DNA of 64,000 nucleotides from a virus. Positions 15,188-34,489 of the stretch are shown piece after piece. The stretch is taken from the IMG/VR virus record IMGVR_UViG_2077657010_000001, positions 1 to 64,000 of that record; one strand, given 5' to 3'. Made by a program: the position numbers and the translations under genes. A model generated the notes under the pieces. It saw only the letters and a list, made by a program, of their open reading frames with translations, was not told where the DNA came from and did not search any database. How positions within the stretch are numbered: the first letter of the stretch is position 1; the number at the start of each line of letters is the position of its first letter.

Positions 15188-15814
15188 CTATTTTAAGTAT
15201 GTGTCGTAGTACTCACTGACTTCGCGCAAGCATCGTTTTGTCCACCCGTAGTAATAACGCTCATTCTTCTCTTTAGGTCGACGTAATGTAATGTGCTTCA
15301 TGTAGTGCATTTGGTCGGCATTCATCTGACCCGCTAATACATACATGGCATCATTCAATCCACGGTGCTCAACAAGCGCATCAATCGCACCTTTCGTTTT
15401 AAGGCCATAGATGCCATCTACAGCGATATTTTTCCAAAGTAGGCCTCTGTTATTCAAACAGTTCAACGTCTCTTGTAAGGACGTTACAGGCTCATCTGAA
15501 CCCGATTTAAGTCCCCAGCGAAACATTGACTTGGCTAATGCTTTAGAATACTGGCAAATCTCATTAAGATGCATGGGATGCCAGAACTCACTTTCGTAGA
15601 TGAAGTATGCCATGGGCTGAGTAAGATTTTCCATCGTACCATCCCAACCAAAGCCATCCGTCAATGACTTTCGATATGCATGGGCTAACCCAACCGTAAT
15701 ACCATGGTTAGTCTCACCACCTAAATCGATAGGATCATTACTATAACCCCCCTCGATATTTGTCTCATCACGAATACATTCATGACAGAAACGTTTTATT
15801 TCTTCTGTTTTCAT
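15188..15814 (-). CDS. Endolysin, glycoside hydrolase family 108 with C-terminal peptidoglycan-binding region
   Basis: EGGYSNDPIDLGGETNHGIT catalytic motif; VDGIYGLKT; NERYYYGW. Confidence 0.9.
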   Translation of the reverse strand: MKTEEIKRFCHECIRDETNIEGGYSNDPIDLGGETNHGITVGLAHAYRKSLTDGFGWDGTMENLTQPMAYFIYESEFWHPMHLNEICQYSKALAKSMFRWGLKSGSDEPVTSLQETLNCLNNRGLLWKNIAVDGIYGLKTKGAIDALVEHRGLNDAMYVLAGQMNADQMHYMKHITLRRPKEKNERYYYGWTKRCLREVSEYYDTYLK

Positions 15815-16263
15815 ATAAAATCCTTATTTAAAATGTCTGGCTTAACTGGCCAGTGTATATTGGCAGGGAAGTCTGGCGTGGTTGCGAGCGACTTCAACTT
15901 ACGCCTATAGTCTTTTAACGTAGACACCTCTGCTTCTGACAATTCACTATATATTAGTGGGTTAGATGCAAATTGGTCAACCTCATTTATTTTATCACGT
16001 ACCAAGTCACGTGCAAACTCACCATTATCATCGATGAGGTGCGGGTGTATGGTCACGTCTAAACAGATCTCATTATCATCATCCCACACAGCGTGCATCG
16101 GATCCACGCCGTTCAATATTTCAGCTATAGTCTTGTTATATACAACAACCACATCAACATCAGCGAAAGATTTATCGGATATGTCAGTTCCTATGTAATT
16201 AATCGTATTATCTGGATTAATCATCACGAAAACACCGTTCACGATATCCTGCGGTACCGCCAT
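15811..16263 (-). CDS. Tail fibre assembly chaperone
   Basis: YRRKL..L...PDFP.NI.WPVKP C-terminus; follows a fibre gene; ATG 16263 after GGAGG. Confidence 0.8.
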   Translation of the reverse strand: MAVPQDIVNGVFVMINPDNTINYIGTDISDKSFADVDVVVVYNKTIAEILNGVDPMHAVWDDDNEICLDVTIHPHLIDDNGEFARDLVRDKINEVDQFASNPLIYSELSEAEVSTLKDYRRKLKSLATTPDFPANIHWPVKPDILNKDFI

Positions 16264-17630
16264 CTCCACCTCCTATCTTCTTGGCGATTTTGGTGGTATG
16301 AGTACATACCCACAATAACGCAACCGTCTGGACATGTCCAGTTGATTGGACGGTCGAAATTATTTACATAGCCAGTGATTTGAACAGGTCCCCACACAAT
16401 GCCAGGCGGGTCTGCTAATAAGTTGTCAACATCCGATCGAATCTTTGCAATGTTCTTGTTCTGTAAACCCTGCTCATCTTCAATACGGTTGATGTCTTGC
16501 TTAGCCTTAGTTATATTGTCCGTATTACTGCGGATGCGCCTGTCGTTATCTGCGATTTTTTTATCTTGATCGTCATTGCGGGCACTTTCTTCCCGTACGT
16601 CCGACTGCAGCGAGTTTATCTCACTGTCTTGCTCATCATTACGACCTGACTCACGAGCAATGGCTGACTTATTAAGACTTATTTCTTGTGCCAGTTCGAC
16701 GTCCCGCTCCTTGAGGCCTTTAATCTCATTATCGATGGCATTTAGGCGATCGTTTATAGTGTCGATGTTACGATTCAAGTCGGCTAACAATTTCTGGAAA
16801 CGATTTAACCGTTTCTCATTAGCTGCCAACTGACGTGCATTGTTATTGAATGTTGACACCAATGTATCGATACGCTGATGAGTCTCATCAAAGGCAGTCT
16901 GAATGGCTTTGAAACGAGGCTCTAGATCGTTAAACGTCTTGCCAATGTCTTCTAAGAATTGATCAATCTCTTCTTTGAAGTAAGCATTGGCCTGATGTGC
17001 AGTAACGCGGTGTGGATTATTGTAATCTGCAAGGTGCAGCCTGTGACGTTCCCTGAAGTCCGCCTCTAACTCGTTGAGACGTTTACGGATAGCCGTCATT
17101 TGGACATTGTCACCCACCATGAGGGTATCACCAATCTGCACAAGCATACTGATGATAAACTCAAACCCATACACATCACCGATATCATGGATGTGTGGTG
17201 GTGGGGTAAATAACTCAGGTTTGTTAATCACCTTACGCCAATAGATGTTTCGGTTATCGATTTCCAACTCGTCGATAGCATCTTGGATAGCTTGTGCAGA
17301 GTGTGCAAAAGGACCACCCACAATGTTTGCTTCCACAACGATGTTTTTACTGACCTTTGTATTATGGATAACAATGACACCCTCAATATCCTTACCTGGT
17401 GTGAGTTTAGATAAGTCATCAAAGTGCATGACACAGGTGTAGTCATCGTCGGGCGTCAAAGGTATATTAGACCCCTCTTCTTTGATTACCACATCATCAG
17501 CGTAGAATGGCCCATTCTTTAAAGAAAAGGCACGGTATTCTTCATCGCCAAGTGTGTGTTTTTCAGTGACGCGGTTTTCTTTCCGTGTCCCAGAGAAGTC
17601 TAATGGGTAAATAATCTTTTTCAAACCCAT
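16239..17630 (-). CDS. Short tail fibre: attachment module, coiled coil, dermatopontin-like tip
   Basis: N-terminal YPLD..G module and NPHRVTAHQ shared with the other fibres; long heptad region; tip TGYVNNFD...TCPDG..SYHQN..EDRRW. Confidence 0.8.
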   Translation of the reverse strand: MGLKKIIYPLDFSGTRKENRVTEKHTLGDEEYRAFSLKNGPFYADDVVIKEEGSNIPLTPDDDYTCVMHFDDLSKLTPGKDIEGVIVIHNTKVSKNIVVEANIVGGPFAHSAQAIQDAIDELEIDNRNIYWRKVINKPELFTPPPHIHDIGDVYGFEFIISMLVQIGDTLMVGDNVQMTAIRKRLNELEADFRERHRLHLADYNNPHRVTAHQANAYFKEEIDQFLEDIGKTFNDLEPRFKAIQTAFDETHQRIDTLVSTFNNNARQLAANEKRLNRFQKLLADLNRNIDTINDRLNAIDNEIKGLKERDVELAQEISLNKSAIARESGRNDEQDSEINSLQSDVREESARNDDQDKKIADNDRRIRSNTDNITKAKQDINRIEDEQGLQNKNIAKIRSDVDNLLADPPGIVWGPVQITGYVNNFDRPINWTCPDGCVIVGMYSYHQNRQEDRRWRWRYRRIS

Positions 17631-17668
17631 TGGTTTTCCAAGTAGATGTTGCCATCACTTGCCTTCTG

Positions 17669-18160
17669 TTAGTATCTCTTATTTAAATACTCTACCTGTT
17701 CAGGGGTTAAGTTAAGTACGGGTATCTGTACATTATCGGGGTAACCCTTTTCACGACTGAGGTCACGTAGCGACTGTCGGTACTTTCTGATGTTCTTAAC
17801 GTCAATGTCGTTATCTTCAAATATATTAATCAACACATCGGCATCGCACAAACATTTTCGTACCTCTTCATCCATATACTGTTTATTGACATCTTCGGTA
17901 TCTATGATAGCCTCTTCGGAGCTACCTACCTTTGATGTCTGAATCAGTGCCCAAGCGCCATCATCCTCTACTTCAGGGGGCGCACCATCCACGTCCAAAT
18001 ATACTGGAGACATTCCATCATTGGCAGGAGGTGGTGGATTTCTAGTTGCACCTCTAGGTATCAAATACTCACCAGCATTAACAGGTGACTGGTAGGCGAC
18101 ATCTTCCCCTAGGTACCTACCATCAGTCATGCTATAGTTGTACACAGTAATATAATCCAT
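17669..18160 (-). CDS. Tail fibre assembly chaperone
   Basis: VYNY...G.YLG....SP....YLIP..AT..PPP N-terminus and YRQSLRDL....GYP C-terminus. Confidence 0.85.
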   Translation of the reverse strand: MDYITVYNYSMTDGRYLGEDVAYQSPVNAGEYLIPRGATRNPPPPANDGMSPVYLDVDGAPPEVEDDGAWALIQTSKVGSSEEAIIDTEDVNKQYMDEEVRKCLCDADVLINIFEDNDIDVKNIRKYRQSLRDLSREKGYPDNVQIPVLNLTPEQVEYLNKRY

Positions 18161-18165
18161 AATCC

Positions 18166-19803
18166 CTACCTGTACCTAATATATACTGGGAAGGATTTGT
18201 TCCGCACGCGTGTTTCTTTAATCCCATTTGAGCCAAGATTCATCTCGATAAATGTACCCCATCTATCACTGTTCCCGCCTGCGGCACTAACCGACCAGCG
18301 GCCCACAATTCTAAACGGTCCACTTCGGCTGTACCAGTTATTTGACCGGTCCATTGAAGTGAATCGACCTTTACTGTTTTTGATATATGCATTATGATCT
18401 TGATAACTACCTATACCTCTTCCAGGGTCGATACCTGCGCCATTATCAAGAGATCTCATAAATAGGCCGCGCACGTCGGGTAATCTGAACCTACTACCAC
18501 TCTTACCGTAAACCGTACCAATAACCTGATACAGCTCAGGAAAATCATCACGTTCTAACCACGCTCCATTGGCTAAAAGTACCTGATCTTCGGGCGACGG
18601 AGTGTTTGCAAAGTGCACTAACTCACCCACACCACGGCGTGCTAACAGCTTCTTAATTTCTTCTATATCTTTCTCGTTGTTTTTAACGCGGTTTAACAAG
18701 GATTCTATTGCATCGTCTTGTTCGTGGTTTTTCTCCTCCACGTCTACAATGCGTTGATATATCTTAATGTCCTCCGCCTTTAGCTGACGTATCTCACCAT
18801 CTTGGTCGTCATTGCGTTCAGTCTCCTCTTGGATCCTCTCCGCATTGCGATCAATAGATGCTTGCAGTTCTTTGTCGCGTTCACGTAGCCCTTTAATAGC
18901 CGCCCAGATTTCTTTGATCTCATCTTTGATGGCATCAATTTGACGCGTTAAATCAGCAAGGAGTTTTTGGAAGCGATTGAGTTGTTTATCTTGGCGACTC
19001 TGCCCCGCATTGATGCTACTAATAACACCTTGTATGGAACCAATAGTATCATTAATTTCACCAATACGTCTGAATACATCTGAAAACGTTTCTGCATTCT
19101 CACCGAATTGCTTTTGTACATCTTCTAAGAACTTATCGATTTCTTCTTTGAAGTAAGCATTGGCTTGGTGTGCAGTGACTTTATGCGGGTTCTTCTTATC
19201 TTCGAAGTGTTCTTTAAAGCGGCGTTTCAAATCATCTTCGAGTGCTTTAATACGCTTTTTGATGTCAACCATCTGCGCATTGTCGCCAATCATTAATACG
19301 TCGGTCATCTGTCCGATGATATCAACGATGAACTGAAAACCAAACACATCGCCCAAATCATGGATATGGGGCGTGGGTTGAAATAAGTCTGGTTTCTCAA
19401 CGACTTCTCGCCAGTATTGGTTACGGTTATCTAATTCTAACGCTTCAATGGCTTGCTGAATGGCTTCAGCAGTATGTGTATATGGGCCACCAACAATGTT
19501 GGCATGGACTTCTATATCCGTACTGACCTCAGGGTTGATGATAACAATCACCCCTGCAATCTCTAACCCTTTTGTCAGCATTGCTAACTTGCTGTAAAAA
19601 AATACGCATTCATAATCGATACCACGCCGTAATGGTTTGGTGCCGTTGCGTTCTTTAACAGTGAGTCCTTTGGTATAGAAGGGCCCGTGTTTCAATGAAA
19701 ATGCACGGTACTGGTTAACGCCAATAACATGCCTCTCACTGATCCGGTTAGCTTGTCGCTCCCCGGTTAAATCTAGCGGGTAGATTAACTGTTTGAGGCT
19801 CAT
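18166..19803 (-). CDS. Short tail fibre with phage tail collar domain
   Basis: Paralog of 16239-17630 over the N-terminal ~380 aa; collar motif VGEL..FA...LLANGA.....FPELY.VIG..YG....FRLPDVRGLF.R. Confidence 0.9.
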   Translation of the reverse strand: MSLKQLIYPLDLTGERQANRISERHVIGVNQYRAFSLKHGPFYTKGLTVKERNGTKPLRRGIDYECVFFYSKLAMLTKGLEIAGVIVIINPEVSTDIEVHANIVGGPYTHTAEAIQQAIEALELDNRNQYWREVVEKPDLFQPTPHIHDLGDVFGFQFIVDIIGQMTDVLMIGDNAQMVDIKKRIKALEDDLKRRFKEHFEDKKNPHKVTAHQANAYFKEEIDKFLEDVQKQFGENAETFSDVFRRIGEINDTIGSIQGVISSINAGQSRQDKQLNRFQKLLADLTRQIDAIKDEIKEIWAAIKGLRERDKELQASIDRNAERIQEETERNDDQDGEIRQLKAEDIKIYQRIVDVEEKNHEQDDAIESLLNRVKNNEKDIEEIKKLLARRGVGELVHFANTPSPEDQVLLANGAWLERDDFPELYQVIGTVYGKSGSRFRLPDVRGLFMRSLDNGAGIDPGRGIGSYQDHNAYIKNSKGRFTSMDRSNNWYSRSGPFRIVGRWSVSAAGGNSDRWGTFIEMNLGSNGIKETRVRNKSFPVYIRYR

Positions 19804-19842
19804 CTATTAAAAGGTGGTGTGTTACCACACCACCCCCTGCAG

Positions 19843-20241
19843 TTACATGTCTACTGGAGTTGGGCGCTTAGGCCATTTGATATTGTCTGGATCGGTAATG
19901 TCCATCTCATACAATTCAACCCGATACTTGCGCCAATCATTTAACATGCTTTCATATTCAGGCTTTTTACTGAATTCTTTTAAATCGGTAAGGATGTTAA
20001 TCTGCTCTTTTGCAAACGCCAGACTGTCAAGACGTTCACTTTTAGCACGGTCAATTCGCATCCCATCAGTAATTGTTAATGGAGCGATATAATAATCGCC
20101 CGTATCATTAACACCTAGCTCGATTTGAGTAATGTCATGATCGTCGTCACTTTGTAAGACGATCATACCCTCTGGGATATTGACATCACCATCCGCCGTC
20201 CAAAGACACTCTTTTGTCTTTTCATCGAATCCATAAATCAT
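19843..20241 (-). CDS. Tail fibre assembly chaperone (Tfa-like)
   Basis: W.KYRVEL...D......IKWP.RP C-terminal motif. Confidence 0.85.
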   Translation of the reverse strand: MIYGFDEKTKECLWTADGDVNIPEGMIVLQSDDDHDITQIELGVNDTGDYYIAPLTITDGMRIDRAKSERLDSLAFAKEQINILTDLKEFSKKPEYESMLNDWRKYRVELYEMDITDPDNIKWPKRPTPVDM

Positions 20242-20244
20242 TAT

Positions 20245-23200
20245 TTAAACCTCTACATTTTTACGTGCGACTAAGATATATTTAAGGTATGAACTACCAC
20301 CGGACGTTTTAACTTCACCGCCATTGTACACAGACTCCATGCTTGCTTTAATACCATTATCCGATAGTGCGCCGTATATTAGTTTATGGCCACTGTCAGT
20401 ATAGTAACCTCGGTCGTAGCTAAAGTACACTGTACATTCACTCGCTTTAAACCCTGCGGGGACTGGCACGTTAGCACCCGGTCTAACAAACCCTTGTGTA
20501 AAAGCCGTTAACAGTCGGTTCTTTTCCGAGAATAGACGGAGCATGTCTGCAGATGCATAGTAGTTATCAATCTGCTCATCTGGTCTAAAGATATTACGGT
20601 AAGTAGAGTTTGGCTGTGACATTGAACCGTATCCGAAGCTACCGCCGGAACGGAACTTTTGAAGTTCTGGGTGCTCCATAACATTAAATTTCAATGTACT
20701 GACAATATCACTTGGACCATGCTTAGATAGGTCAGTAGATTTGACAAACCCTGTTGCACTCACCGTGAAATCATCACCTACCCGGTCAGCGGTAATACGT
20801 GACCAGTTACCACTCCACCCGCCTAAATTGCCGGTCCCGAGTGCGGATTTTTTAATCAACTTACGCGAGGGTTGGTGGTAGTTGTACCAGATGTCAAACC
20901 GAGACGCATTTTTAATGTGTCCTTCGGTTGAGCGACTCCTCACCGCACACAGTGTATGTTCCTGCCCATCAACAACCTTATATGCCAAGATGATAATAAG
21001 GCCATCATTATCATTGTGCGGCGACCCTACGAGGGTGTCAAAGTGATACTCCCCGACTTCTGTTGGCGATACAAACCCCACGAATGAACCGGAGTTAATA
21101 GGACAGATGATAGCATCGTTACCAGCATCATATTTCCACGATGATAATTCATCCGATTTGGCGGGTTGATTGCTACTATTGAAGATGTGTGAGATACGTG
21201 TCCAATTATCAAACACCTCCTTGAATGTTGGGATTGATAGGTCGTGAAACATCCCCATGTTACGGACTTTACCTAGACCGAATGCATCTTTAGAGACATT
21301 ATTAATCCCGCCATGCGCCATCTTGTTTTTGATGTGCTGTTCGAGCTCATAAATATTCCCCATACGTGTGGCACGTTCGACCTGGATATCAGTAATTCGA
21401 TCGTCCCCGGTAGTACAGTACCCCACATACATGCGATCTTTCCTGTCACTCAACTTACTCTCGTATAGAGTATACTGACCCTTACCATCGACCACTTCGA
21501 CATAAATGTAGAAGGTCTTATTTTTATACCCGTTGATTCCCGGATAGTCGGTGAGATCAATACTCTGTTTAGGGAGAATATAAGTGGTGCCATTGGTATA
21601 GAAACGTTCATCATTAGAGAAGTATATCACCCATCCAGATTTCACTTCAGACAACAGCAAGAGCTTAGTACCCTTACCCGCCATGTCTTTGTTCGGCTCA
21701 TAGGTGGTTGCACTTATCCCGTATGTTGAATACGAATCTTTATACCATAACAATCCTAGGTTTGGGTGGTATCCCCAACCATAGTTTCTATATGTATGTG
21801 CCTGATTAAAAGAGGACTTGATCGTATTATTTTTATTTTCATCAAGTATGAACATCGGCGTTTTCTGACCACTGTTACCAACATAATAGTAACTTGGTGC
21901 TAAGTTTAATGCGTAAAACCAGTTACCGTCATCTAACTTCACACGGATGGGGTTGGCTATACTATCGTCTTTTGTATCGATACCAGTTGGCGAGCCAATT
22001 TTACTGTACGATACCTCACGCCCGACAGCAATCGACGATACTGAACCACCCTCGAATGCTAAGTCAACACTATAAACTGACATCCTACCGGATTTTACAC
22101 CATTATTTTGTACTATGTACCAAATATACACAACAAAGGCATCATGCGCCCCTCGCCAATCCCCGAAGACCGTCATATTCACACGATCATTATCAGGATC
22201 CTCATTGTGTAGTTCAGAGGTACGGACTCTTAGGTCTGAGAGTAATTGGTTGATAACACCACTATCCCAATCCACAGGCTCTATGTAATTACCATTATCA
22301 TACTTAGAGTAGCATGTCCGCTCTGACTGGTTTAATACAAAACCCACGTTCTCACCCACATCCCAACATCTGGGAATGCGGATTATCTTACGGTAGGAGT
22401 CAAACGACTCACGATATGTCGTCGGTCCCCAACCATCGATGCCGTCATAACTGCCATTGATATCAACCGCAGCCACGAAATCCCCACCTGTACGTTGTCT
22501 ACAGACCATCTTATCATCACTAATAAATGTAACAGACCTGGCACCTTTCCCCACAATACTGCCGAAATTACCATTGAAATACTTACGGGATAGGAGGCGT
22601 AAGCTACCAGCACGATTAGCCAAGTTCATATCGTGCCACATGGTGCTACCGGCATTATGTGTAAATGTACATAATCGCCTGATATGATATGCACCTACTG
22701 TTACTGCCAGATGATCTGTTAAAATGTGTGCGGTTGATGTATGGTTAGGGGCAGCATACGGCCACATGCCACCAGTATTGAACTTTGATGTAAAGCCACT
22801 ATCTTTCAGTATGTTGGGATACATGCTTTCAGTGTCGCATGTAATCTCGAAAGTATCTAGGTCTACTGTAATTGTTGCCCCAATATTTCCATAAGCACTT
22901 CCAGTAGGGCTTGAAAAATATGACCGACCTGACTGCGTAACCCTCAGTTTCCCATCTTTCAAATACGCTAAGGTGTTACGGTGAGCGTGGGCGACGTTGT
23001 TGGAACCTGTGAATCTATCATCCTTTCTGAGTATTAGTGGCTTATCGTTTGGATCGCTTGAATGTCCAGTGTTTGTAAAAACAAACATATCCACATTCTC
23101 TTTACGGTTCCCGTGGAAATCCACTCCACTCAATAAGACCTCATTAAAGGCGACAGGCTTACCATCCTCGATATCCTTTCGCAATGCACGCGACATTCGA

Positions 23201-25347
23201 TATGTGAGCCCACCATTTGCAAGTACTAGATATGTACGATATACATAAAACTCATCCATCTCAATATTAGATGAATTATTAGCAGGGACATTACCATTAG
23301 ATAGTACTTCCGCACCTAAATGACTATCGGCGTTCATTGTGCCATTTTGAATCACAACATACTGCTTTCCATTAGAGGCCATCATTAAGAAAACACCACG
23401 GCCTCCACGAATAATTCTAGTTGCGTAAACACCCTGTGGTAGGAATTTAGGTTTATAAGGGACGATGGTGGAAGTAGTGTCCTTCATTACCCCCTCCACT
23501 AATTCGGCATACCAATAATACACACCTTTAGTGCCACCCATCCCCTGTCCATTACGCAGTGCCACTAACCTACCATCTGACTCAATAGATACTGCAGTGG
23601 CACCATAACCATCCCAACTGTCCTTATATGCACCATAGACGGGCACAGGCAAGTAGCCAAACCCACCATATTGGGTAGCATTCAAAACTTGTGGCGGCAT
23701 CATTTCTTCAAGGCGACTTTCACCATCTTTGAGGTCATCAACCATGCCATCTAATAGCAACATCGAGGCAGCTTTGTCTTTTACCCCACCGTACGTCTCA
23801 GACGTCTTACCGATGCCATAAGTTTTTGTGTCAGCAATAGGCATGTTTTTGAATTCGTCTAAGTCATGCTTATGGTCACTTTCTGCGTACTCAGATGCTG
23901 CATCTTTAAACGCATCACTTGCTACTTTCTCATTGGGCGCTGTGTTATCGACATTACCTAACCCAAAATCACTTTTAGTCAATGTGATATCTTTATTAAG
24001 ACGCTTACCACTAACCTTGACTGTATCGTCAACATATTTGTCCGCCAGACGTTTAAGCTCACCTACCGCATATTCACTAGACGCTAATTTAACAGAATCA
24101 CTGAATATGGAATGTGATAATCTAAAAATACCTTCTGACGTTAAGGTAGCGATAGGATAGAACACGTAGCCTGTCAGCGGTGATGATTCAATACCACGTC
24201 CAGATAAATGGATAGTGTCTGACGTTTTAACGTGCAGTATTGTGTCTTCGTACTCTGGGGGTGGTACGAAGTCTTCCATGTTCCCGACATGAATAAGGTA
24301 AAATCCGTTAAATACACACGACTCATCATCGGTCGCCTGACCGGTACTGTGCACGGTGAGCATGTTTTCAGCGGCAGCCACGGCAGTACCGAAACCATCT
24401 TCGCCTTCTTGTTCACGGTCATCACTTTTAAGTGTAATCTCACCATTAGAGATAATATTCATCATCCCATCATTAAGACGAATGGTAGACACACCCATTT
24501 TGTTGCGGATAACCGCATTCTCACCATTGAATGTGAGTCGCCCCTCTAACGTATCACCTACCAATTTAAACAACTCTTCAGTGTCGTCAGCAGTGATGCC
24601 TAGTTCATTTACCACATTGACTAACTGCGCTAGTGTGTATCCATATACTTTCAACGCATCCATTGCTTTTGCGTCTTTATGGAGTGCCCCTAATTGTGTA
24701 TGTGTGGGTTGGTGGGGCGCATACCGGTTTTCGTGGTAAGGTACATCTTCGTCTAAAATGCGTGTATTGAGCGATGTAAGTCGTTCAATTAATTGGTCAA
24801 AGGTTTCCTTTTCCCATTCGTTTAATTGTTGTAGTTTGGCTCTCAGGCGGTCTAATGCCCCAGTAATTGGATCTTCTTCAATGGCCTGTTCGCGGTTGGT
24901 CGGCGCGGACACATCGGGGATGATTTTTTCGTATTTCATCACCGAGACCCAATCAAGGTTACGTGGGTCTTTTAAATCAACCTGAGAGAGGTGTTCTTGG
25001 ATATGGCGTTGTGATACCAAATAACGACTGCCTAGGGTACGGTACTGTTTAAACTTAACCTTACCTTCAAGGCTGTGATCGTTTAACATCACACTACCAA
25101 AAATTGGCCGACGGTTCTTTTCTGAGGCACTCTCGAAATAGTGTCCAAGGTAGTAGTCAAGGCCTTCTAATAATTCACGGTCACTTTCTACGTGAACTAG
25201 AGTGAAATCTTTACGGTAGAATGGTGCGAATGTAGGTATGATACAACGATGTTTATTCGGATAATCCGAGATAGTGTGTACCTCGTCACGAACAACGTTA
25301 CTATCTAACGTTGCATCCGAGTCGTAAGGATATGCGTAATCAGACAT
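20245..25347 (-). CDS. Long tail fibre / receptor-binding protein with C-terminal thrombospondin-C-like domain
   Basis: Shared N-terminal module, GLGNVDNT and GLGKVRN fibre repeats, paralog of 29229-34388; ATG 25347 after GGAG. Confidence 0.85.
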   Translation of the reverse strand: MSDYAYPYDSDATLDSNVVRDEVHTISDYPNKHRCIIPTFAPFYRKDFTLVHVESDRELLEGLDYYLGHYFESASEKNRRPIFGSVMLNDHSLEGKVKFKQYRTLGSRYLVSQRHIQEHLSQVDLKDPRNLDWVSVMKYEKIIPDVSAPTNREQAIEEDPITGALDRLRAKLQQLNEWEKETFDQLIERLTSLNTRILDEDVPYHENRYAPHQPTHTQLGALHKDAKAMDALKVYGYTLAQLVNVVNELGITADDTEELFKLVGDTLEGRLTFNGENAVIRNKMGVSTIRLNDGMMNIISNGEITLKSDDREQEGEDGFGTAVAAAENMLTVHSTGQATDDESCVFNGFYLIHVGNMEDFVPPPEYEDTILHVKTSDTIHLSGRGIESSPLTGYVFYPIATLTSEGIFRLSHSIFSDSVKLASSEYAVGELKRLADKYVDDTVKVSGKRLNKDITLTKSDFGLGNVDNTAPNEKVASDAFKDAASEYAESDHKHDLDEFKNMPIADTKTYGIGKTSETYGGVKDKAASMLLLDGMVDDLKDGESRLEEMMPPQVLNATQYGGFGYLPVPVYGAYKDSWDGYGATAVSIESDGRLVALRNGQGMGGTKGVYYWYAELVEGVMKDTTSTIVPYKPKFLPQGVYATRIIRGGRGVFLMMASNGKQYVVIQNGTMNADSHLGAEVLSNGNVPANNSSNIEMDEFYVYRTYLVLANGGLTYRMSRALRKDIEDGKPVAFNEVLLSGVDFHGNRKENVDMFVFTNTGHSSDPNDKPLILRKDDRFTGSNNVAHAHRNTLAYLKDGKLRVTQSGRSYFSSPTGSAYGNIGATITVDLDTFEITCDTESMYPNILKDSGFTSKFNTGGMWPYAAPNHTSTAHILTDHLAVTVGAYHIRRLCTFTHNAGSTMWHDMNLANRAGSLRLLSRKYFNGNFGSIVGKGARSVTFISDDKMVCRQRTGGDFVAAVDINGSYDGIDGWGPTTYRESFDSYRKIIRIPRCWDVGENVGFVLNQSERTCYSKYDNGNYIEPVDWDSGVINQLLSDLRVRTSELHNEDPDNDRVNMTVFGDWRGAHDAFVVYIWYIVQNNGVKSGRMSVYSVDLAFEGGSVSSIAVGREVSYSKIGSPTGIDTKDDSIANPIRVKLDDGNWFYALNLAPSYYYVGNSGQKTPMFILDENKNNTIKSSFNQAHTYRNYGWGYHPNLGLLWYKDSYSTYGISATTYEPNKDMAGKGTKLLLLSEVKSGWVIYFSNDERFYTNGTTYILPKQSIDLTDYPGINGYKNKTFYIYVEVVDGKGQYTLYESKLSDRKDRMYVGYCTTGDDRITDIQVERATRMGNIYELEQHIKNKMAHGGINNVSKDAFGLGKVRNMGMFHDLSIPTFKEVFDNWTRISHIFNSSNQPAKSDELSSWKYDAGNDAIICPINSGSFVGFVSPTEVGEYHFDTLVGSPHNDNDGLIIILAYKVVDGQEHTLCAVRSRSTEGHIKNASRFDIWYNYHQPSRKLIKKSALGTGNLGGWSGNWSRITADRVGDDFTVSATGFVKSTDLSKHGPSDIVSTLKFNVMEHPELQKFRSGGSFGYGSMSQPNSTYRNIFRPDEQIDNYYASADMLRLFSEKNRLLTAFTQGFVRPGANVPVPAGFKASECTVYFSYDRGYYTDSGHKLIYGALSDNGIKASMESVYNGGEVKTSGGSSYLKYILVARKNVEV

Positions 25348-25421
25348 CCCATACTCCATGTCAGTTAATGTTATTAATCAAAGGATTCGTAGGCTAAGTG
25401 ACTACGAATCCCTGTTATGTG

Positions 25422-28400
25422 TTAAATATCACGTACCCCTATTAGTAAAAAGTTGACAAGCATAGGCTGAGTAATGTCGCCGCCAGCACCATCCTTCTCC
25501 CTCTTGTAATAACAGTCTGCAACGATGTGTCTGTCAGGGCTAGTCATGTCAATATTTCCTGTCATTTCTTTTCCTGATAGGTACGACTTCAACCCCATCC
25601 TAACACCGTCAATAGGGTTATTCTTGTTACTTTTATTCCCCCACCGTCGGATGCCATAATAAGCGATGTATCTTCGACACCCTTTTGGCAGTGGCAGTAG
25701 TCCAGATTTGGAGGTATCAACATATCCTTTCACTACGGGTAAATTTGAACCGTCTCGAATTGACATGTACACCCCTTCCGCTGTAACGTACTTATCACGT
25801 AGTCCACCGATATCCGAACCAATACAGTCAACAGTAAACGATAGTGCGTCATTACCTCCACGTGGGCGGGTAACAATGCCGACGTTCCCACCATCGATGG
25901 CGTTTTTAACAATACCGCTACCGTAGCCGACTTCTTCACGGCCACTATTGTAGATCTGTTCCTTTGAACCATTGTAGTAGTTAACCGTATATTTCATCTT
26001 AATGGCATCTGGAGCAAACACCATATCTGCAATATACTGATACAATTTACGGTCCTGTACGGCGTCGGTCTGTATATCAATGTTGTAAGCAGGGACGCCG
26101 CCATCTAAGCGGTAGCGAATAGTGACATAAAAGGTAGCTGCTGTGTTAATCTCAATGCTCTTAACAATGTACGATTTGATAACAGTTACGATATCGCCAG
26201 TTTCGTCAATAAGCAGTATCTGGAAATAATGTTTGTTGTCAGTGTCCCGACAATCAATGCGTGCGATAACGAAATAGATATTGTCGTCTTCGTCAACATA
26301 TTTGCCAATCACTGCGCCTACATCACGTATGGCGTTATCACCTGACATCGGTGCGGTTATTTTCCAAGAAACCAGTCGTTCGCCCTCCTCGTTGATAAAG
26401 GTGGGGTCCATAAAGTTCATGGTTGGGCTGGCTGCTGCAAAATAATGATTATCATTGGAAGTGCCTTTTAGCTCAACCGACACGCCATCATTTAGGTTGA
26501 CACCACTTTGGATGTAGCGATTCTCTGTCACATTGACTTCGTTAAAGTTATGTGCCATTACCCATTTACGGAAACCGTTATGTGAGCCATCGTCGACATG
26601 GTTGACTGCCTGTTCGTTCTTCACTAGACCCAGCCCGATAGTCGACGGATCTCCCATATCACCAGCATCTGAGTTCATATGTGCTTGAGGGTCGGTTTTA
26701 TGCTCTTCAAGCTCCCTAAACTCACCAACAGACGTCACAGGCTCAGGGACCAATAAATTTCGACCATGGTAATTACTGCGGGCTACTCTATCAATACTCC
26801 CCCAATATTCAGTGTTTCCTGGCTCGGGTAGCGGATTTGATTCGTCGTAAGGGTAACCATCTCTATCTTTGAAAACATAAAGATCCCAATTAGTAGTATC
26901 TGGTTTAGCGAGAACATTACCATCCTTATCCTCCACTTTTAGCAGCGCATTGTACCCACCACGACCACTATCGACGCAGATGGCGGCGAGCGTCATGGTA
27001 TCCCTTGGCGTGCTAACCACATACGGATCACTGTAAAAGCCATATCGAACTGGCTGCGGATTGCCATCAATGTAAACATAAGTGGTGTCGTCTACTTTTG
27101 ATGTAATCACACATTCGTCAACCCCTGTAGTATCTACAACTGTCTTGAAGACGACAGGCCCCCACCGAAACGGTTGTAAGTCAAATCGAGACCCTTCCAA
27201 TACTGGAGTCGATAATGGTCGCGCTTCATCACCCACACTGCTGGTTGTCCAGATAATGCCTTGATCGTCCGTTTCTATAGTTAACACATGCATCCGACTT
27301 GAATTATTGGGATATAACGTCACATCTACAGTGTATGTCAACGATCCCCCAATCACGTTGATATAAACATAAAAAATATTATTTACATGATTTTTAGGGT
27401 ACAGAGCTTTCAAGTCAAACGTCTTAGAAGGCATTTCGGTCTCACTGTCCGAATACATGATTTCGTTTTTATAAAAAACACAATCACTTCCAATTTCAAA
27501 CGTGAAACCCGTATACGGAATGCCGCTAGGTGCAGACCAGTACGATAAGTCAATAGCCGAGGCAGGCATCAATCCACGGAGACTATCTTCCGCATTACTG
27601 ATTTGCTCATCGATTTGTGTTATGACGTAAGGGGATGCTGCAGTGCTGCCTGTTTTCACCTCTTCGATATCATCAGCGATACGAAATATACCCCAAGTAT
27701 CTTCATCGGCCACATCCATATCCATATCTTTAAGATCGTGAACATGACCCTTTTTAGAAAACTGGTCTAGGTATTCCTGCTGTTTGATAGATATAGGTTT
27801 ATCTTTATCTGCAGTATTATCTACCTTGTCTAAGTAGATATCCGTTTTATCAAACGACATACCGTCGCGAATAGGGTAGCCATTGATAGTCTGGCTGTCT
27901 TTAACACGCCCACCCAGCCGCTCACGTAACATATATAACACTTTAGGTGTTGGTGCCGTGGCGATTGACTTTGAGTCAGGGTCGTCTGACAGTTTAATGA
28001 CCCCTCGCTTTGTCAATGTTGCCGTTACATATTTAGCATGTGCCTCTAACTTATTGTCCGGCCTAGAGCTCCCTGTAATATCTACAGTATCCGTATTTTC
28101 AGAAACAACACGCATGCCGGTACCACCCAACTTTTTCAGCATCTCACGCACATTTTCAACGTGGAGTAGTTGGTGGCCATTATACTTAATCGTATCATAC
28201 TGGTAGTTATTGCCTGTCGACACGATCTCAAGGACATTGTTACCGGCTTGCATGGTAACATTGGCATTTCCTGAAGCGTCATCATCGGCATATACTGCCG
28301 TTAACCCATCAGACGTGTATTCAATATTACCGTTATCTAAGGATACCTTACTCGTCCCGCTACTGCTCTTGATTGATAATGTACCCCCATCCAATGTGAA

Positions 28401-29216
28401 ATCATCATGGATGGTTTGATTAGTGGCCTTTTCTAAATATCGGTCTATATCGTCTTGAGTGATGCCACGACTATTGATATACTCTGCTAACTCGAGCAGC
28501 GTTAGGGTGTATGCTTGCATCGCAGATGCCGCGCGACCATCTTCAGGAAGTGCGTCTGCCTGTGTGTAACTAACCTTATGTGGATTAGCTTTATTCGCAA
28601 TGTGGCCTGCAAAGTCATACTGGTCTAAGATGCTATGGACTTGATCGATACGACTATTTAAATAATCGACCGCCTCAACGTCTGACGTGTCCATCGCTTC
28701 CTTAACCGCCTGCGTGATACCATCAATCGATGCTTCCACCCCCTCTTTGTTCACAAAATCTGCATAGTGCTGTTTGTGACGGTGTGGTGTGAATGTCATT
28801 GGTCTATCCAATAGACGTTCATATGGCGTCTTCACCGGGTCTGTGAGGACATTTGCAAGACGTGTAAGTACATCACTGCGGATACCAACAAACGTGTGGC
28901 CTACCGTCCGATAGTCAAGGATGAACTCACCCTTTAGTTCGGGGTTGATGATAGATATCCCCCCAAATAGCTTTCTCCCTGCGATGCGCCGTGCATCTTT
29001 TAGCTCCCATGCAAAGTTAAAGTCACTTCCCTCATTTAACTCTACTTGAGAATCTGCGTGAATTATTTTAAAATCATGTTTAAAGAACGGTGCCAATTCT
29101 GGGACAATCACACGGTACGTATTGTCGTTAGACATGACCATGTGACTCTCACCATGAATGTGGCACTCATCCATCGTACCCATTGGGTCGTGTGGATAAG
29201 TGACACGTATACTCAT
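25422..29216 (-). CDS. Tail fibre protein (paralog lacking the large central region)
   Basis: Shared N-terminal module, NPHKVSYTQ, LDKVDNTAD.DKP.S and GLGLVKN repeats. Confidence 0.85.
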   Translation of the reverse strand: MSIRVTYPHDPMGTMDECHIHGESHMVMSNDNTYRVIVPELAPFFKHDFKIIHADSQVELNEGSDFNFAWELKDARRIAGRKLFGGISIINPELKGEFILDYRTVGHTFVGIRSDVLTRLANVLTDPVKTPYERLLDRPMTFTPHRHKQHYADFVNKEGVEASIDGITQAVKEAMDTSDVEAVDYLNSRIDQVHSILDQYDFAGHIANKANPHKVSYTQADALPEDGRAASAMQAYTLTLLELAEYINSRGITQDDIDRYLEKATNQTIHDDFTLDGGTLSIKSSSGTSKVSLDNGNIEYTSDGLTAVYADDDASGNANVTMQAGNNVLEIVSTGNNYQYDTIKYNGHQLLHVENVREMLKKLGGTGMRVVSENTDTVDITGSSRPDNKLEAHAKYVTATLTKRGVIKLSDDPDSKSIATAPTPKVLYMLRERLGGRVKDSQTINGYPIRDGMSFDKTDIYLDKVDNTADKDKPISIKQQEYLDQFSKKGHVHDLKDMDMDVADEDTWGIFRIADDIEEVKTGSTAASPYVITQIDEQISNAEDSLRGLMPASAIDLSYWSAPSGIPYTGFTFEIGSDCVFYKNEIMYSDSETEMPSKTFDLKALYPKNHVNNIFYVYINVIGGSLTYTVDVTLYPNNSSRMHVLTIETDDQGIIWTTSSVGDEARPLSTPVLEGSRFDLQPFRWGPVVFKTVVDTTGVDECVITSKVDDTTYVYIDGNPQPVRYGFYSDPYVVSTPRDTMTLAAICVDSGRGGYNALLKVEDKDGNVLAKPDTTNWDLYVFKDRDGYPYDESNPLPEPGNTEYWGSIDRVARSNYHGRNLLVPEPVTSVGEFRELEEHKTDPQAHMNSDAGDMGDPSTIGLGLVKNEQAVNHVDDGSHNGFRKWVMAHNFNEVNVTENRYIQSGVNLNDGVSVELKGTSNDNHYFAAASPTMNFMDPTFINEEGERLVSWKITAPMSGDNAIRDVGAVIGKYVDEDDNIYFVIARIDCRDTDNKHYFQILLIDETGDIVTVIKSYIVKSIEINTAATFYVTIRYRLDGGVPAYNIDIQTDAVQDRKLYQYIADMVFAPDAIKMKYTVNYYNGSKEQIYNSGREEVGYGSGIVKNAIDGGNVGIVTRPRGGNDALSFTVDCIGSDIGGLRDKYVTAEGVYMSIRDGSNLPVVKGYVDTSKSGLLPLPKGCRRYIAYYGIRRWGNKSNKNNPIDGVRMGLKSYLSGKEMTGNIDMTSPDRHIVADCYYKREKDGAGGDITQPMLVNFLLIGVRDI

Positions 29217-29228
29217 ATTACGCTCCTA

Positions 29229-32200
29229 TTAAGTGCGTTTTACATTAATTCGGTCGTCGGTGAAATACGTCACAGTGTAATGGAGTGGGTATTTAGTATG
29301 ATACACAGTCCAACTCACCATTGCCTTGACATACACCTTAGCAAGGATATTGCTACCTGCATCCTCGGTACGGAATAAGCTTACAGAAATACCTGCGCCA
29401 GAATCTTGAGCTTTTGATGGGTTGATTTGGACGATATACTTGTAACCTTCCATCCCCTCAGCTTTAGGGATGAGTAGCTCAGACCATTGATCGTCATCTG
29501 AATCCGTACCCGGCATCATTACCTTCCCCGATTGGACATGCATCCGATTGGACCAACTGTGCAGGTTACGGTACAGCTCCATGGATGCGTAATACCCACG
29601 ACCATCTTCATCAGGGCGAATGATGTTACGCCATGTTGAGTTCGGTTGCGAGCGCGCTATATATCCAAACTTATTCTCACCTCGGAACATCTTCAGATCA
29701 GCATTACTTGATATATCAAGCGTATGCTTAATATCTGTACCGCCTTGCCCTCGGAATTTGGTGGCTTCAATTGTGAAAATATCACCGACACGTGTTATTG
29801 ATAATACACGTTCTGGAATTTGATCCCAGCCATATTTACCACTATGACCTTTAAAGCTAGCTAACACATTACTCTCATTGGGTGTAGAGTGTCGTAAATA
29901 CCCGTGAACGCTATGAGTATCTGTACCACACACATCGAATGATAACATATGCGGCTCGCCATCAATTTCCTTATATGCAAGTATTACACCAATGAAGTCA
30001 TCGTCCGCACTTGTAGATGACACACCTGTAATGAAACGGTAGTCACCAACCACATCAGGACTGACAAAACCGACCCATGAGGAAGAGTTGGTGGTATTAC
30101 GCATCTGGTCTTTCGATGCGTTAAACGACCACGTTTCCAACTCCTTAGGTATTGCTGGGAACGAATTGCCCGCTTGGTATGAAACACGCTTCCAGGTATT
30201 GAACACTTCCTTGAATGTCGCAACCTTCAGGTCATGCTTCATGGGCTTATTCTCAACCAACCCTAACCCTAAACTGTCTCGGTTGATTTTAGACATATCT
30301 AAGTCGTGTGGTGTTGGGTCTTCTAAGTGTTGCTGGAACTCTCTAAAACTACCTAGACGTGTCACACGTTCGGCCTCTAGTTCTATAATACTAGTATCAT
30401 CGGTTTTACAATAACCAATATATACAGTATCTGAACTATCACCCACCTTATCCGGTCTGATGATGTATCGTGGATTTCCTCCCTGCGCAGTCACATATAA
30501 GTAGAATGTGTTCGACTTATAGGTTGTTGGGAAATTGTCCGTGAGATCAATAGCGGTTTCAGGGACATTATACACTACGCCACTTGTAAAGAATTTAATC
30601 TCTTGTGTGAAATAGATATTCCACCCAGAGGCGACTTGTGATGTATGTAAAACAACTTTACCATGTGTAGTACCATTATCGATAAAATCCACCCAGGTGT
30701 CTGCAGTTTTACCGATTTTGTTACCGAGCACTGCTGTGAACGAGTTATCTTGGATTTGCTGGACAAGACCATACTCTTTGGTGACGCTCAGAGCGCGATT
30801 GGCATAATAACTATAGGTATTATGTCGCTTAAACTTATCCACCTCGCCTGTGTCTAAATCAACGACCGCCAAAAACCCATGGTGTCCAGTATTAGCGTGT
30901 AATGCTAAGCCCTGATTGAACGCGACCAGTACCTTGCCCGCTACCCTATCGTACATGATACCACCATTGGACACCCAGCTACGTGGATAACTGGACGTGC
31001 CGCTAGGACTGGTTATTGTTCTCGGCTCGATTATATAATCTTTAACCTTAACATTCCCGACATCTCCCTCTCTCGGACAGTCCTCTAAAGTACCCGCGCA
31101 GTATGTCGATAGATAACCGCCCCCTATCTTATCATGTAACCCTCCACCGATAAAGAATGGCGGGATAGCTTTATCTTTAGGTATAAGGATAACTGCGCGC
31201 GCATATTTAAACGGGTGATCTGTTTTAATTTTCTTTAGCTTTTCACTCACCTCGCGTTCTAACGATTGTAGGTTATCATCAGTGATGGATAGCTTACCGC
31301 TGAAATCAAACCCATCACCCGCAGTGTAGAAGTTTTCTTTGACATGACCATTAAGGACACCGCCAATTAACTCCTCTTTATCGCCATCGATAACGTAAAC
31401 ATTCCTACGCAATCTAATATCATCATCCTTTGTACGGTCAGTGGTCGGGCCAAAACCACCCAGTCCATTTTTGTAGGTATAGTTAGGCTCATAACGGCAA
31501 AGATTGGAGCCATTATCTGCAAGCAGATAGTTGTTAGGTAGGAATGACAAGTGCTTTTGCATCGTTGTTACAATACTACCAAAGTTACCTACAATTCTAC
31601 GGGAATTCCCAATATGATCAATGCGACGTGTATCAGCATTGAGACTATCGAAATAACTATCCGCTTCCCACGATTGGGCAACTACTTTGGGTGTCCACTC
31701 GTTAAACGTTCGCATCACAAAAGCGTATTTACCGTCAGAAACTTCTATACCATATGTGTTACCACTGTGACCATACATCCGCTGAAAGGTACTATTGCGC
31801 GTCGGCCCGCCATACGCCCCTTTTTCACGGCTAACATAAAACGGGAAGTTATTATTAGGATCAACGACCTGAGTGTTGTTGTCTAGGTTTATAGTAACAC
31901 TATATGACCAATTACTGCGGTGTGAGCCGTTCGAACTGTTGTGATAAGTTCCAACCGATACAAATAAGCGTAATCTATTACCTTCCAACCAACTTGCTAT
32001 TCCAAGACCATTCCAAGTAATGTTGATATTGTATTCGGAAGATTCCCTCACACACACCACATTTTCATTAGGATCGTCCGACCAAGATTTATCTGCAAGT
32101 TTTAACTCATGTCCCGATCGCGGCTCGCCAAAGAAGTTGTCGCCACTAAATGTAACTTCTTCAGGGATAACGATGTTGAAATTGTCAAACTCACTTAGCG

Positions 32201-34388: not shown

Positions 34389-34489
34389 ATGTGTTACCTC
34401 TAAATAGTTAATCTTTATACCGAGTGGCCTTTCCATCCGCACCACCCGCACCTACATATTATGACATCCACATTGCTTTTGGAGTACAC

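Follow-up and report, generated by a model that had tools for sequence, protein, structure and literature searches.

A single dermatopontin repeat forms the tip of a phage tail fibre and may rebuild a three-repeat cellular domain from three chains

How can a domain that cells mostly build from three tandem repeats serve a virus as one repeat? The question is raised by a tail fibre gene in a 64,000-nucleotide stretch of viral DNA (IMG/VR record IMGVR_UViG_2077657010_000001, positions 1 to 64,000; hereafter the window), the product of which, P0001, ends in a sequence resembling dermatopontin and the Limulus hemagglutinin/amebocyte aggregation factor (HAAF), that is, the DERM family of Pfam (PF14704). 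The initial annotation, made from the letters of the window, had proposed that the fibre tip is a single DERM repeat, that a trimeric fibre with one repeat per chain would rebuild the three-repeat domain as a receptor-binding head, and that this reflects a domain shared across kingdoms, with binding to bacterial glycans or to animal mucus or matrix. The gene and its parts are located as follows in the window:

16239..17630, minus strand: tail fibre gene P0001, 463 amino acids (aa), from the open reading frame and its translation, with the TGA stop at 16239-16241
17109..17630, minus strand: N-terminal anchor module, residues 1-174, delimited by identity to other fibres and by PHROG matches
16413..17108, minus strand: coiled-coil stalk, residues about 175-406, ending in a break, ...NLLADPP
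16242..16403, minus strand: single DERM repeat, residues 410-463, one full 54-residue period

The tip of P0001 is a true DERM repeat, and a single one. Measured against the curated gathering score of 28.3 bits, the Pfam DERM profile matches residues 418-461 of the whole protein at 39.9 bits (expectation value, E, 6.3e-10) and the last 63 residues alone at 44.1 bits (E 3.2e-11), and a six-frame search of the 98-kb IMG/VR virus contig finds this site only (42.1 bits). The match covers positions 52-95 of the 152 in the profile, which is one repeat. The repeat signature N.[WF]D ... [FYW].CP ... G..S.H.N..EDR.[WF] is present at residues 418-455; aligned with 50 cellular members, it is in register with their repeats. 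When the 63-residue tip was searched with phmmer against 1.84 billion representative proteins, 880 were matched at E ≤ 0.001 and 385 at E ≤ 1e-10; the likeness is therefore far beyond chance. The peptide that the initial annotation had quoted, now placed at residues 418-458, was right, while the complete unit starts slightly upstream, at residue 410 (position 16403), because it includes the strand WG.VQ.TGY. A hidden Markov model (HMM) made from phage tips places the unit at residues 410-463; these 54 residues, which include WG.VQ.TGY as strand b0, compare with a repeat spacing of 54-57 in tandem forms. Aligned to the repeats of two AlphaFold models of three-repeat proteins, the tip would comprise the strands b0 (IVWGPVQIT), b1 (INWT), b2 (CVIVGMYSYHQ) and b3 (DRRWRWRYRRI).

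The tip is as close to some cellular repeats as it is to those of other phages: over 40 columns, it has 68% identity with the second repeat of a DERM protein from a marine eukaryote and 64% with the second repeat of P0062, which resembles a Pseudoalteromonas 'dermatopontin-like protein', and its identity to other phage tips is 60-70%. It departs from the family in two hallmarks: P0001 has exactly one repeat in place of three in tandem within one chain, and it lacks most of the cysteine framework known from the animal secreted proteins, the positions of which are nearly invariant in the cellular alignment; the Cys of.CP alone is retained, and in the jumbo-phage lineage only. Other routes to relatives gave little: the tip had chance-level matches only among the sequences of solved structures (E ≥ 0.4), NCBIfam held no model for the tip or for the chaperone described below, and a word-based protein search with the tip alone returned the query only.

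We then counted repeats in 266 collected homologues with a small HMM built from the phage tips, with the following result:

1 repeat: 37 proteins
2 repeats: 16
3 repeats: 144
4 repeats: 10
5 repeats: 7
6 repeats: 47
7 repeats: 1
8 repeats: 1
9 repeats: 3

Cellular homologues mostly have 3, 6 or 9 repeats, whereas 35 of the 37 single-repeat proteins are phage-fibre-like and carry the repeat 0-11 residues from the C-terminus. Judged by reading the sequences, these 35 fibres are built on at least 13 unrelated N-terminal scaffolds, which include the jumbo-phage anchor, the P2-type Phage_tail_fib (PF12571), the T7 tail-fibre N-terminus (PF03906), a fibre from a Bacteroidota metagenome-assembled genome and a 1570-aa protein. 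In all the single tips, the core motif is preceded by the strand WG.VQ.TGY, and the ending is RYR[ST][IL] in nearly all; the tips of four other fibres also score above the DERM gathering threshold (35.6-40.8 bits). Between P0001 and fibres of different scaffolds, only the last ~55 residues are common, at 54-62% identity. This breadth was revealed by an alignment-based search of a 5.8-billion-protein set; scans of IMG/VR, GTDB genomes and JGI metagenomes found few loci with the tip, and when it was searched by tblastn against 50,697 phage records, Vibrio phage pVa-21 alone matched. Klebsiella rows in the same tblastn output are noise (E about 6-9), and two pattern matches, L003 and L020, were discarded as spurious, being an unrelated large protein and a T7-like RNA polymerase. 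Two of the proteins, P0222 and P0224, have a T7-type N-terminus (PF03906) and the same single repeat at the end, so that the tip also occurs on fibres that are probably those of podoviruses.

The cross-kingdom sharing put forward in the initial annotation holds, DERM domains being found in animals, marine protists, bacteria and phages. The named proteins with 3, 6 or 9 repeats are 'hemagglutinin/amebocyte aggregation factor-like' or 'dermatopontin-like' proteins of hagfish, lamprey, fishes, corals and molluscs; further homologues are a choanoflagellate protein, marine eukaryote transcripts and, in bacteria, the Pseudoalteromonas 'dermatopontin-like protein' WP_049864089. Two proteins of 460 and 299 aa (P0064 and P0106) carry three cysteine-free, phage-style repeats per chain, in register with those of the animal proteins, and the N-terminus of P0064 matches the phage family phrog_7098; by their sequences, they appear intermediate in form between the three-repeat domain of cells and the single-repeat tip. 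Such three-repeat forms are rare in phage-style proteins. The direction of transfer between cells and phages cannot be claimed, because a phylogeny of 152 repeats over 40 columns has almost no supported branches (4 of 149 starred); in this tree, a single clade of phage singles is neither shown nor contradicted. Base composition lends no support to a recent transfer of the tip: GC content is 48.1% in the tip, 39.6% in the chaperone gene and 42.7% in the window, differences that are too slight, over regions that are too short, to argue for one.

Several cellular members have architectures of their own. Six proteins (P0054, P0057, P0070, P0075, P0082 and P0086) have a type-IV-pilin-like N-terminus, matched by Pfam N_methyl in P0057 and recognized by eye in the other five, and a three-repeat, cysteine-bearing DERM domain at the end; judging from this layout, they may be pilus-tip adhesins. 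Three JGI metagenome or metatranscriptome contigs (L012, L013 and L014) are eukaryotic-looking transcripts, the products of which have a three-repeat DERM domain behind a long, Lys/Arg-rich N-terminal region that is probably helical. In animals, DERM is fused to astacin protease, C-type lectin and ricin-B-like lectin domains and even to a B-raf kinase gene model, which suggests a general role as a binding module.

The tip travels with a gene of its own. Directly downstream of P0001 lies a tail fibre assembly (Tfa) gene, to be compared with that of a second short fibre, P0002:

15811..16224, minus strand: cognate Tfa chaperone of the DERM-tipped fibre, PHROG tail fibre assembly family (phrog_188, E 2e-6)
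18166..19803, minus strand: paralogous fibre P0002, 545 aa, with a Collar-domain tip (Pfam Collar, E 3e-10)
17669..18160, minus strand: Tfa chaperone of the Collar-tipped P0002 (PHROG tail fibre assembly families)

The mechanically called open reading frame of the cognate chaperone (15811-16269) reaches a GTG at 16269 inside the fibre gene, an overlap of 31 bases; its start is probably the internal ATG at 16224 (MINPDNT...), 15 bases past the fibre stop, because homologues begin at this position. Its N-terminal domain is marked by the motif [YV]L[LIV]NPDNT[VI]N[YF], then a conserved P...[AC][VI]WD, and the same domain is encoded downstream of the DERM-tipped fibre in every locus read (pVa-21, L005/L004, L011 and L006/L007), in four lineages with a gene start 10-45 bases past the fibre. 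The two other Tfa genes of the window resemble the DERM-tip chaperone only in the C-terminal 35-65 residues; with that of the Collar paralogue, only residues ~94-127 are common. The gene downstream of P0001 thus has both a tip-specific N-terminal domain and a conserved C-terminal domain. This pattern of sharing matches the published layout of Tfa proteins, in which a variable N-terminal domain binds the distal fibre end and a conserved helical C-terminal domain drives trimerisation, with trimeric fibres and a fibre-to-Tfa stoichiometry of 3:3 (PMC9608196). By sequence, tip and chaperone appear to be a cassette exchanged among otherwise unrelated fibres.

How, then, might one repeat do the work of three? 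We infer that the fibre is a homotrimer, from its stalk, from its paralogue and from the Tfa literature. A strong heptad pattern runs through residues ~218-406 in a single register, the stalk has 6 Pro/Gly in 231 residues, and in Pfam and NCBIfam profile searches this region matches coiled-coil families only. The tip of P0002 matches structures of the T4 short tail fibre gp12 (1ocy, 1pdi and 5iv5); gp12 is a homotrimer. A single unit of a three-unit domain on a trimeric fibre has the same stoichiometry as the cellular domain. Since cellular repeats come in units of three, phage fibres such as P0001 end in exactly one complete unit and such fibres are presumably trimeric, a prism made by three chains is the simplest reading, and we hold it probable that the trimeric fibre assembles one DERM-like prism from its three chains as a receptor-binding head. 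P0001 belongs to the tail fibre set of a phiKZ-like jumbo phage that is a relative of pVa-21. Around the fibre axis, its three identical repeats would together form one DERM-like beta-prism of three sheets, each chain replacing one of the three tandem repeats of the cellular domain, and this prism head would lie at the distal end, where it would contact the host surface and bind the receptor. The C-termini would assemble first, aided by the Tfa protein encoded downstream, the tip-specific N-terminal domain of which would keep the three chain ends aligned during folding of the head.

The predicted fold of the family is consistent with such a head. A canonical hagfish DERM protein, modelled with AlphaFold from a 50-sequence alignment (mean predicted local distance difference test score, pLDDT, 94.5; predicted template-modelling score 0.86), repeats one strand pattern three times, and the AlphaFold model of the cysteine-free, three-repeat P0106 (pLDDT 90-98 over the repeats) likewise shows the pattern b0-b1-b2-b3 three times. 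In searches of solved structures by sequence and by fold, no structure of the dermatopontin family turned up. The top VIA-align matches of both models are chains of Vip3 toxins: 6vls at Z 7.0, with a root-mean-square deviation of 4.0-4.1 Å over 120-121 residues, and 9efg at Z 6.6-6.7, where the matched stretch is residues 344-526, which we take to be the three-sheet beta-prism domain of Vip3 (domain III). The whole three-module C-terminal domain of PCSK9 matches both models at Z 3.0-4.4 over 92-129 residues, and further weak matches are jacalin-type lectins and the beta-prism domains of Vibrio cholerae Bap1 and cytolysin; identities in these fold matches are 3-15%. Together, the weak matches point to a three-fold, beta-prism-like architecture and are not proof of it. 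A comparison at the level of single repeats is given by A0A1S6L1V4, a viral protein of 465 aa: its monomer model in BFVD can be superimposed on one repeat of the DERM model at 1.3 Å over 53 columns with 34% identity, and on the second DERM model at 1.8 Å over 59 columns; the tool gives this protein no name, and its length equals that of gp121 of pVa-21. The ESM Atlas model of P0001 residues 405-463 is closest to a cnidarian Dermatopontin cluster (template-modelling score, TM, 0.78).

Several points weigh against the three-chain prism. Foldseek found no match to the DERM model in the PDB at E ≤ 0.001; a Z of about 7 lies within a range described by the tool as common, where a match may mean no more than a frequent arrangement; and the three-fold geometry of DERM itself is drawn from weak fold matches. 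Most of the cysteines bracing the domain in animals are absent from the tip, F.CC being replaced by RYR or W.YR. The link to the chaperone comes from four lineages only, and the literature searched gave no established ligand of any DERM domain. In addition, the same Atlas model has TM 0.60-0.67 to ordinary phage fibre ends, for example gp37_C and Phage_fiber_2; since it also resembles these, so short a beta-meander is not diagnostic.

This last resemblance bears on the main alternative, in which the tip is a DERM repeat by descent whose three copies intertwine as a needle, knob or beta-helix, so that only the hairpins are reused. Intertwined, chaperone-dependent tips are common among phage fibres (PMC9608196), and the inter-strand cysteines of the cellular domain have given way to the RYR ending. 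However, the nearest structural neighbour of the tip is still the Dermatopontin cluster, the unit is exactly one period with b0 included, and the cysteine-less, RYR-type repeats of P0106 are confidently predicted to adopt the DERM fold within a single chain. Moreover, the identity of the tip to cellular repeats is as high as that among phage tips, which argues that both are under the same packing constraints. We regard intertwining as unlikely.

The recurrence of the chaperone N-terminal domain with the tip across unrelated phages could also mean that the repeat is mainly a docking platform, on which a Tfa-like protein stays in the mature fibre and touches the receptor or shares in this role. 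The chaperones of Mu and Ur-lambda are reported to remain in virions and to contribute to receptor recognition, whereas gp25 of Pam3 and gp38/gp57A of T4 are absent from them (PMC9608196), and the conservation of the tip across at least 13 scaffolds would fit a functional head equally well. We consider a docking role of this kind decidedly unlikely; it is in any case compatible with the prism model and not opposed to it.

Dermatopontins are matrix and cell-adhesion proteins. The Limulus member is an agglutinin, cited in the literature searched only as a hemagglutinin and aggregation factor (Fujii et al. 1992), and the closest cellular repeats are from marine animals and protists, all of which could favour a tip that binds animal mucus or extracellular matrix and so holds the phage on the surface of a host animal. 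That part of the initial annotation finds no support here: the fibre that bears the repeat at its distal end is served by a dedicated assembly chaperone, the repeat is exchanged among many fibre types, including P2- and T7-type host-recognition fibres, and bacteria carry DERM domains too. Binding to mucus or matrix is very improbable; the distal position, the dedicated Tfa chaperone and the sharing of the module by many phage fibres point to ordinary binding to a host receptor. Finally, a chance or convergent likeness, or a truncated remnant of a three-repeat domain, might be suggested by a match of only ~45-54 residues and is rejected, given a Pfam score above the curated cut-off, the 385 library matches at E ≤ 1e-10, the 35 fibre-like proteins that end alike in RYR[ST][IL] with a stop within 11 residues, and the chaperone gene 10-45 bases downstream in four lineages.

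The bare domain match is already on record, since a protein collection tags the pVa-21 protein and other tips with PF14704. No description of a DERM repeat as a fibre tip was found in the libraries and literature searched, none of the papers found linked dermatopontin with phages or with the beta-prism, and the pVa-21 and pVa-22 papers do not mention dermatopontin. The novelty lies in the pattern, in which one repeat, accompanied by a dedicated chaperone, is a fibre tip that is widely exchanged, in contrast to the three-repeat cellular forms and the rare three-repeat forms of phage-style proteins. It can be suggested, tentatively, that the tip is a natural homotrimeric version of the dermatopontin domain, either a state that preceded triplication or a fission product of the three-repeat domain. 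If true, this would be a living, cross-kingdom example of a switch between oligomer and tandem repeat, in the form of a mobile receptor-binding cassette that phages carry, and the ligands of DERM domains could for the first time be sought with a protein that is free of cysteines and easy to express. Matrix assembly, wound healing, shell formation and invertebrate immunity have been connected with the family, and no agreed ligand was found in the literature searched; a cysteine-free, 54-residue form on a coiled coil, made in bacteria with its chaperone, would offer an easy route to structures and binding tests. For phage biology, the tip and chaperone are a new, widely exchanged module on jumbo, P2-type, T7-type and other fibres, including that of pVa-21, and a help in interpreting receptor specificity among marine phages. 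For protein evolution, the putative one-repeat trimer is paired with a three-repeat monomer, a pair with which the origin of pseudo-symmetric domains can be tested.

P0001 lies in a minus-strand tail-fibre module that begins with three very long genes (29229-34451, 25422-29216 and 20245-25359), followed by the two short fibre genes, each of which is followed in turn by a small gene of a PHROG Tfa family; the module is closed by an endolysin-like gene:

15188-15814, minus strand: endolysin / lytic-transglycosylase-like gene (phrog_315, E 1.5e-30)

The five fibre-like genes of this array (16239-34451) encode proteins of 1740, 1264, 1704, 545 and 463 aa. Within it, the N-terminal part of P0001 is homologous to virion and tail fibre proteins, its matches to PHROG virion structural and tail fibre families spanning residues 4-216 (phrog_2163, E 1e-69). 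An anchor common to all five fibres, as first proposed, is borne out by BLAST for the 545-aa fibre (47% identity) and the 1264-aa fibre (25422-29216; 22% identity to the N-terminal module, E 4e-10) and goes undetected at E 1e-3 in those of 1740 and 1704 aa. P0002 is 47% identical to P0001 over residues 1-382 only, and as the two then end in a Collar domain and a DERM repeat respectively, they are paralogues that differ in their tips. The nearest cultured relative of P0001 is gp121 of pVa-21, a phiKZ-like jumbo phage of Vibrio alginolyticus; this 'minor tail protein' is 50% identical over the full length, and its gene is followed by a 'putative tail fiber assembly protein' and then by a lytic transglycosylase, the same gene order as in the window. 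A nucleotide search of GenBank phages found no near relative.

Compared with the dermatopontin and HAAF family, the tip has the same signature (YVN.FD,.CP, G..S.H.N..EDRRW), up to 68% identity to single cellular repeats and the same predicted strand pattern per repeat. It differs in having one repeat per chain in place of 3 (or 6 or 9), in lacking most of the cysteines and a signal peptide, and in forming the end of a virion fibre, behind a coiled coil. With the Collar paralogue P0002, and through it with T4 gp12, the comparison is one of position: P0002 has the same anchor and stalk, and both tips are distal, presumptive receptor-binding ends of a fibre that is presumably trimeric, while the last 80-160 residues are unrelated, a Collar domain of ~150 residues in P0002 standing opposite the 54-residue DERM repeat of P0001.

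The beta-prism domains of Vip3, jacalin-type lectins, cytolysin and Bap1 are the top matches among solved structures and cover the whole domain of the DERM models, at middling Z that may signify only a common arrangement; several of them bind carbohydrates, and their sugar-binding residues cannot be transferred to DERM. An analogy for the proposed relation of three chains to one is offered by resistin and PCSK9. Resistin is a trimeric coiled coil. It carries a trimerising head after that coil, whereas PCSK9 has three modules in one chain around a pseudo-three-fold axis, and the resistin homology of the PCSK9 C-terminal domain is stated in the title of entry 2qtw; with no sequence relationship to DERM and a weak fold match, this is a likeness of architecture, not of family. 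Closest in genetic organization are the fibre-Tfa cassettes of Mu, P2, lambda stf and Pam3 (gp24/gp25), in which, as in the window, the fibre is directly followed by a two-domain Tfa protein and the tip is exchanged together with its chaperone; what distinguishes the cassette of the window is that its tip is a DERM repeat.

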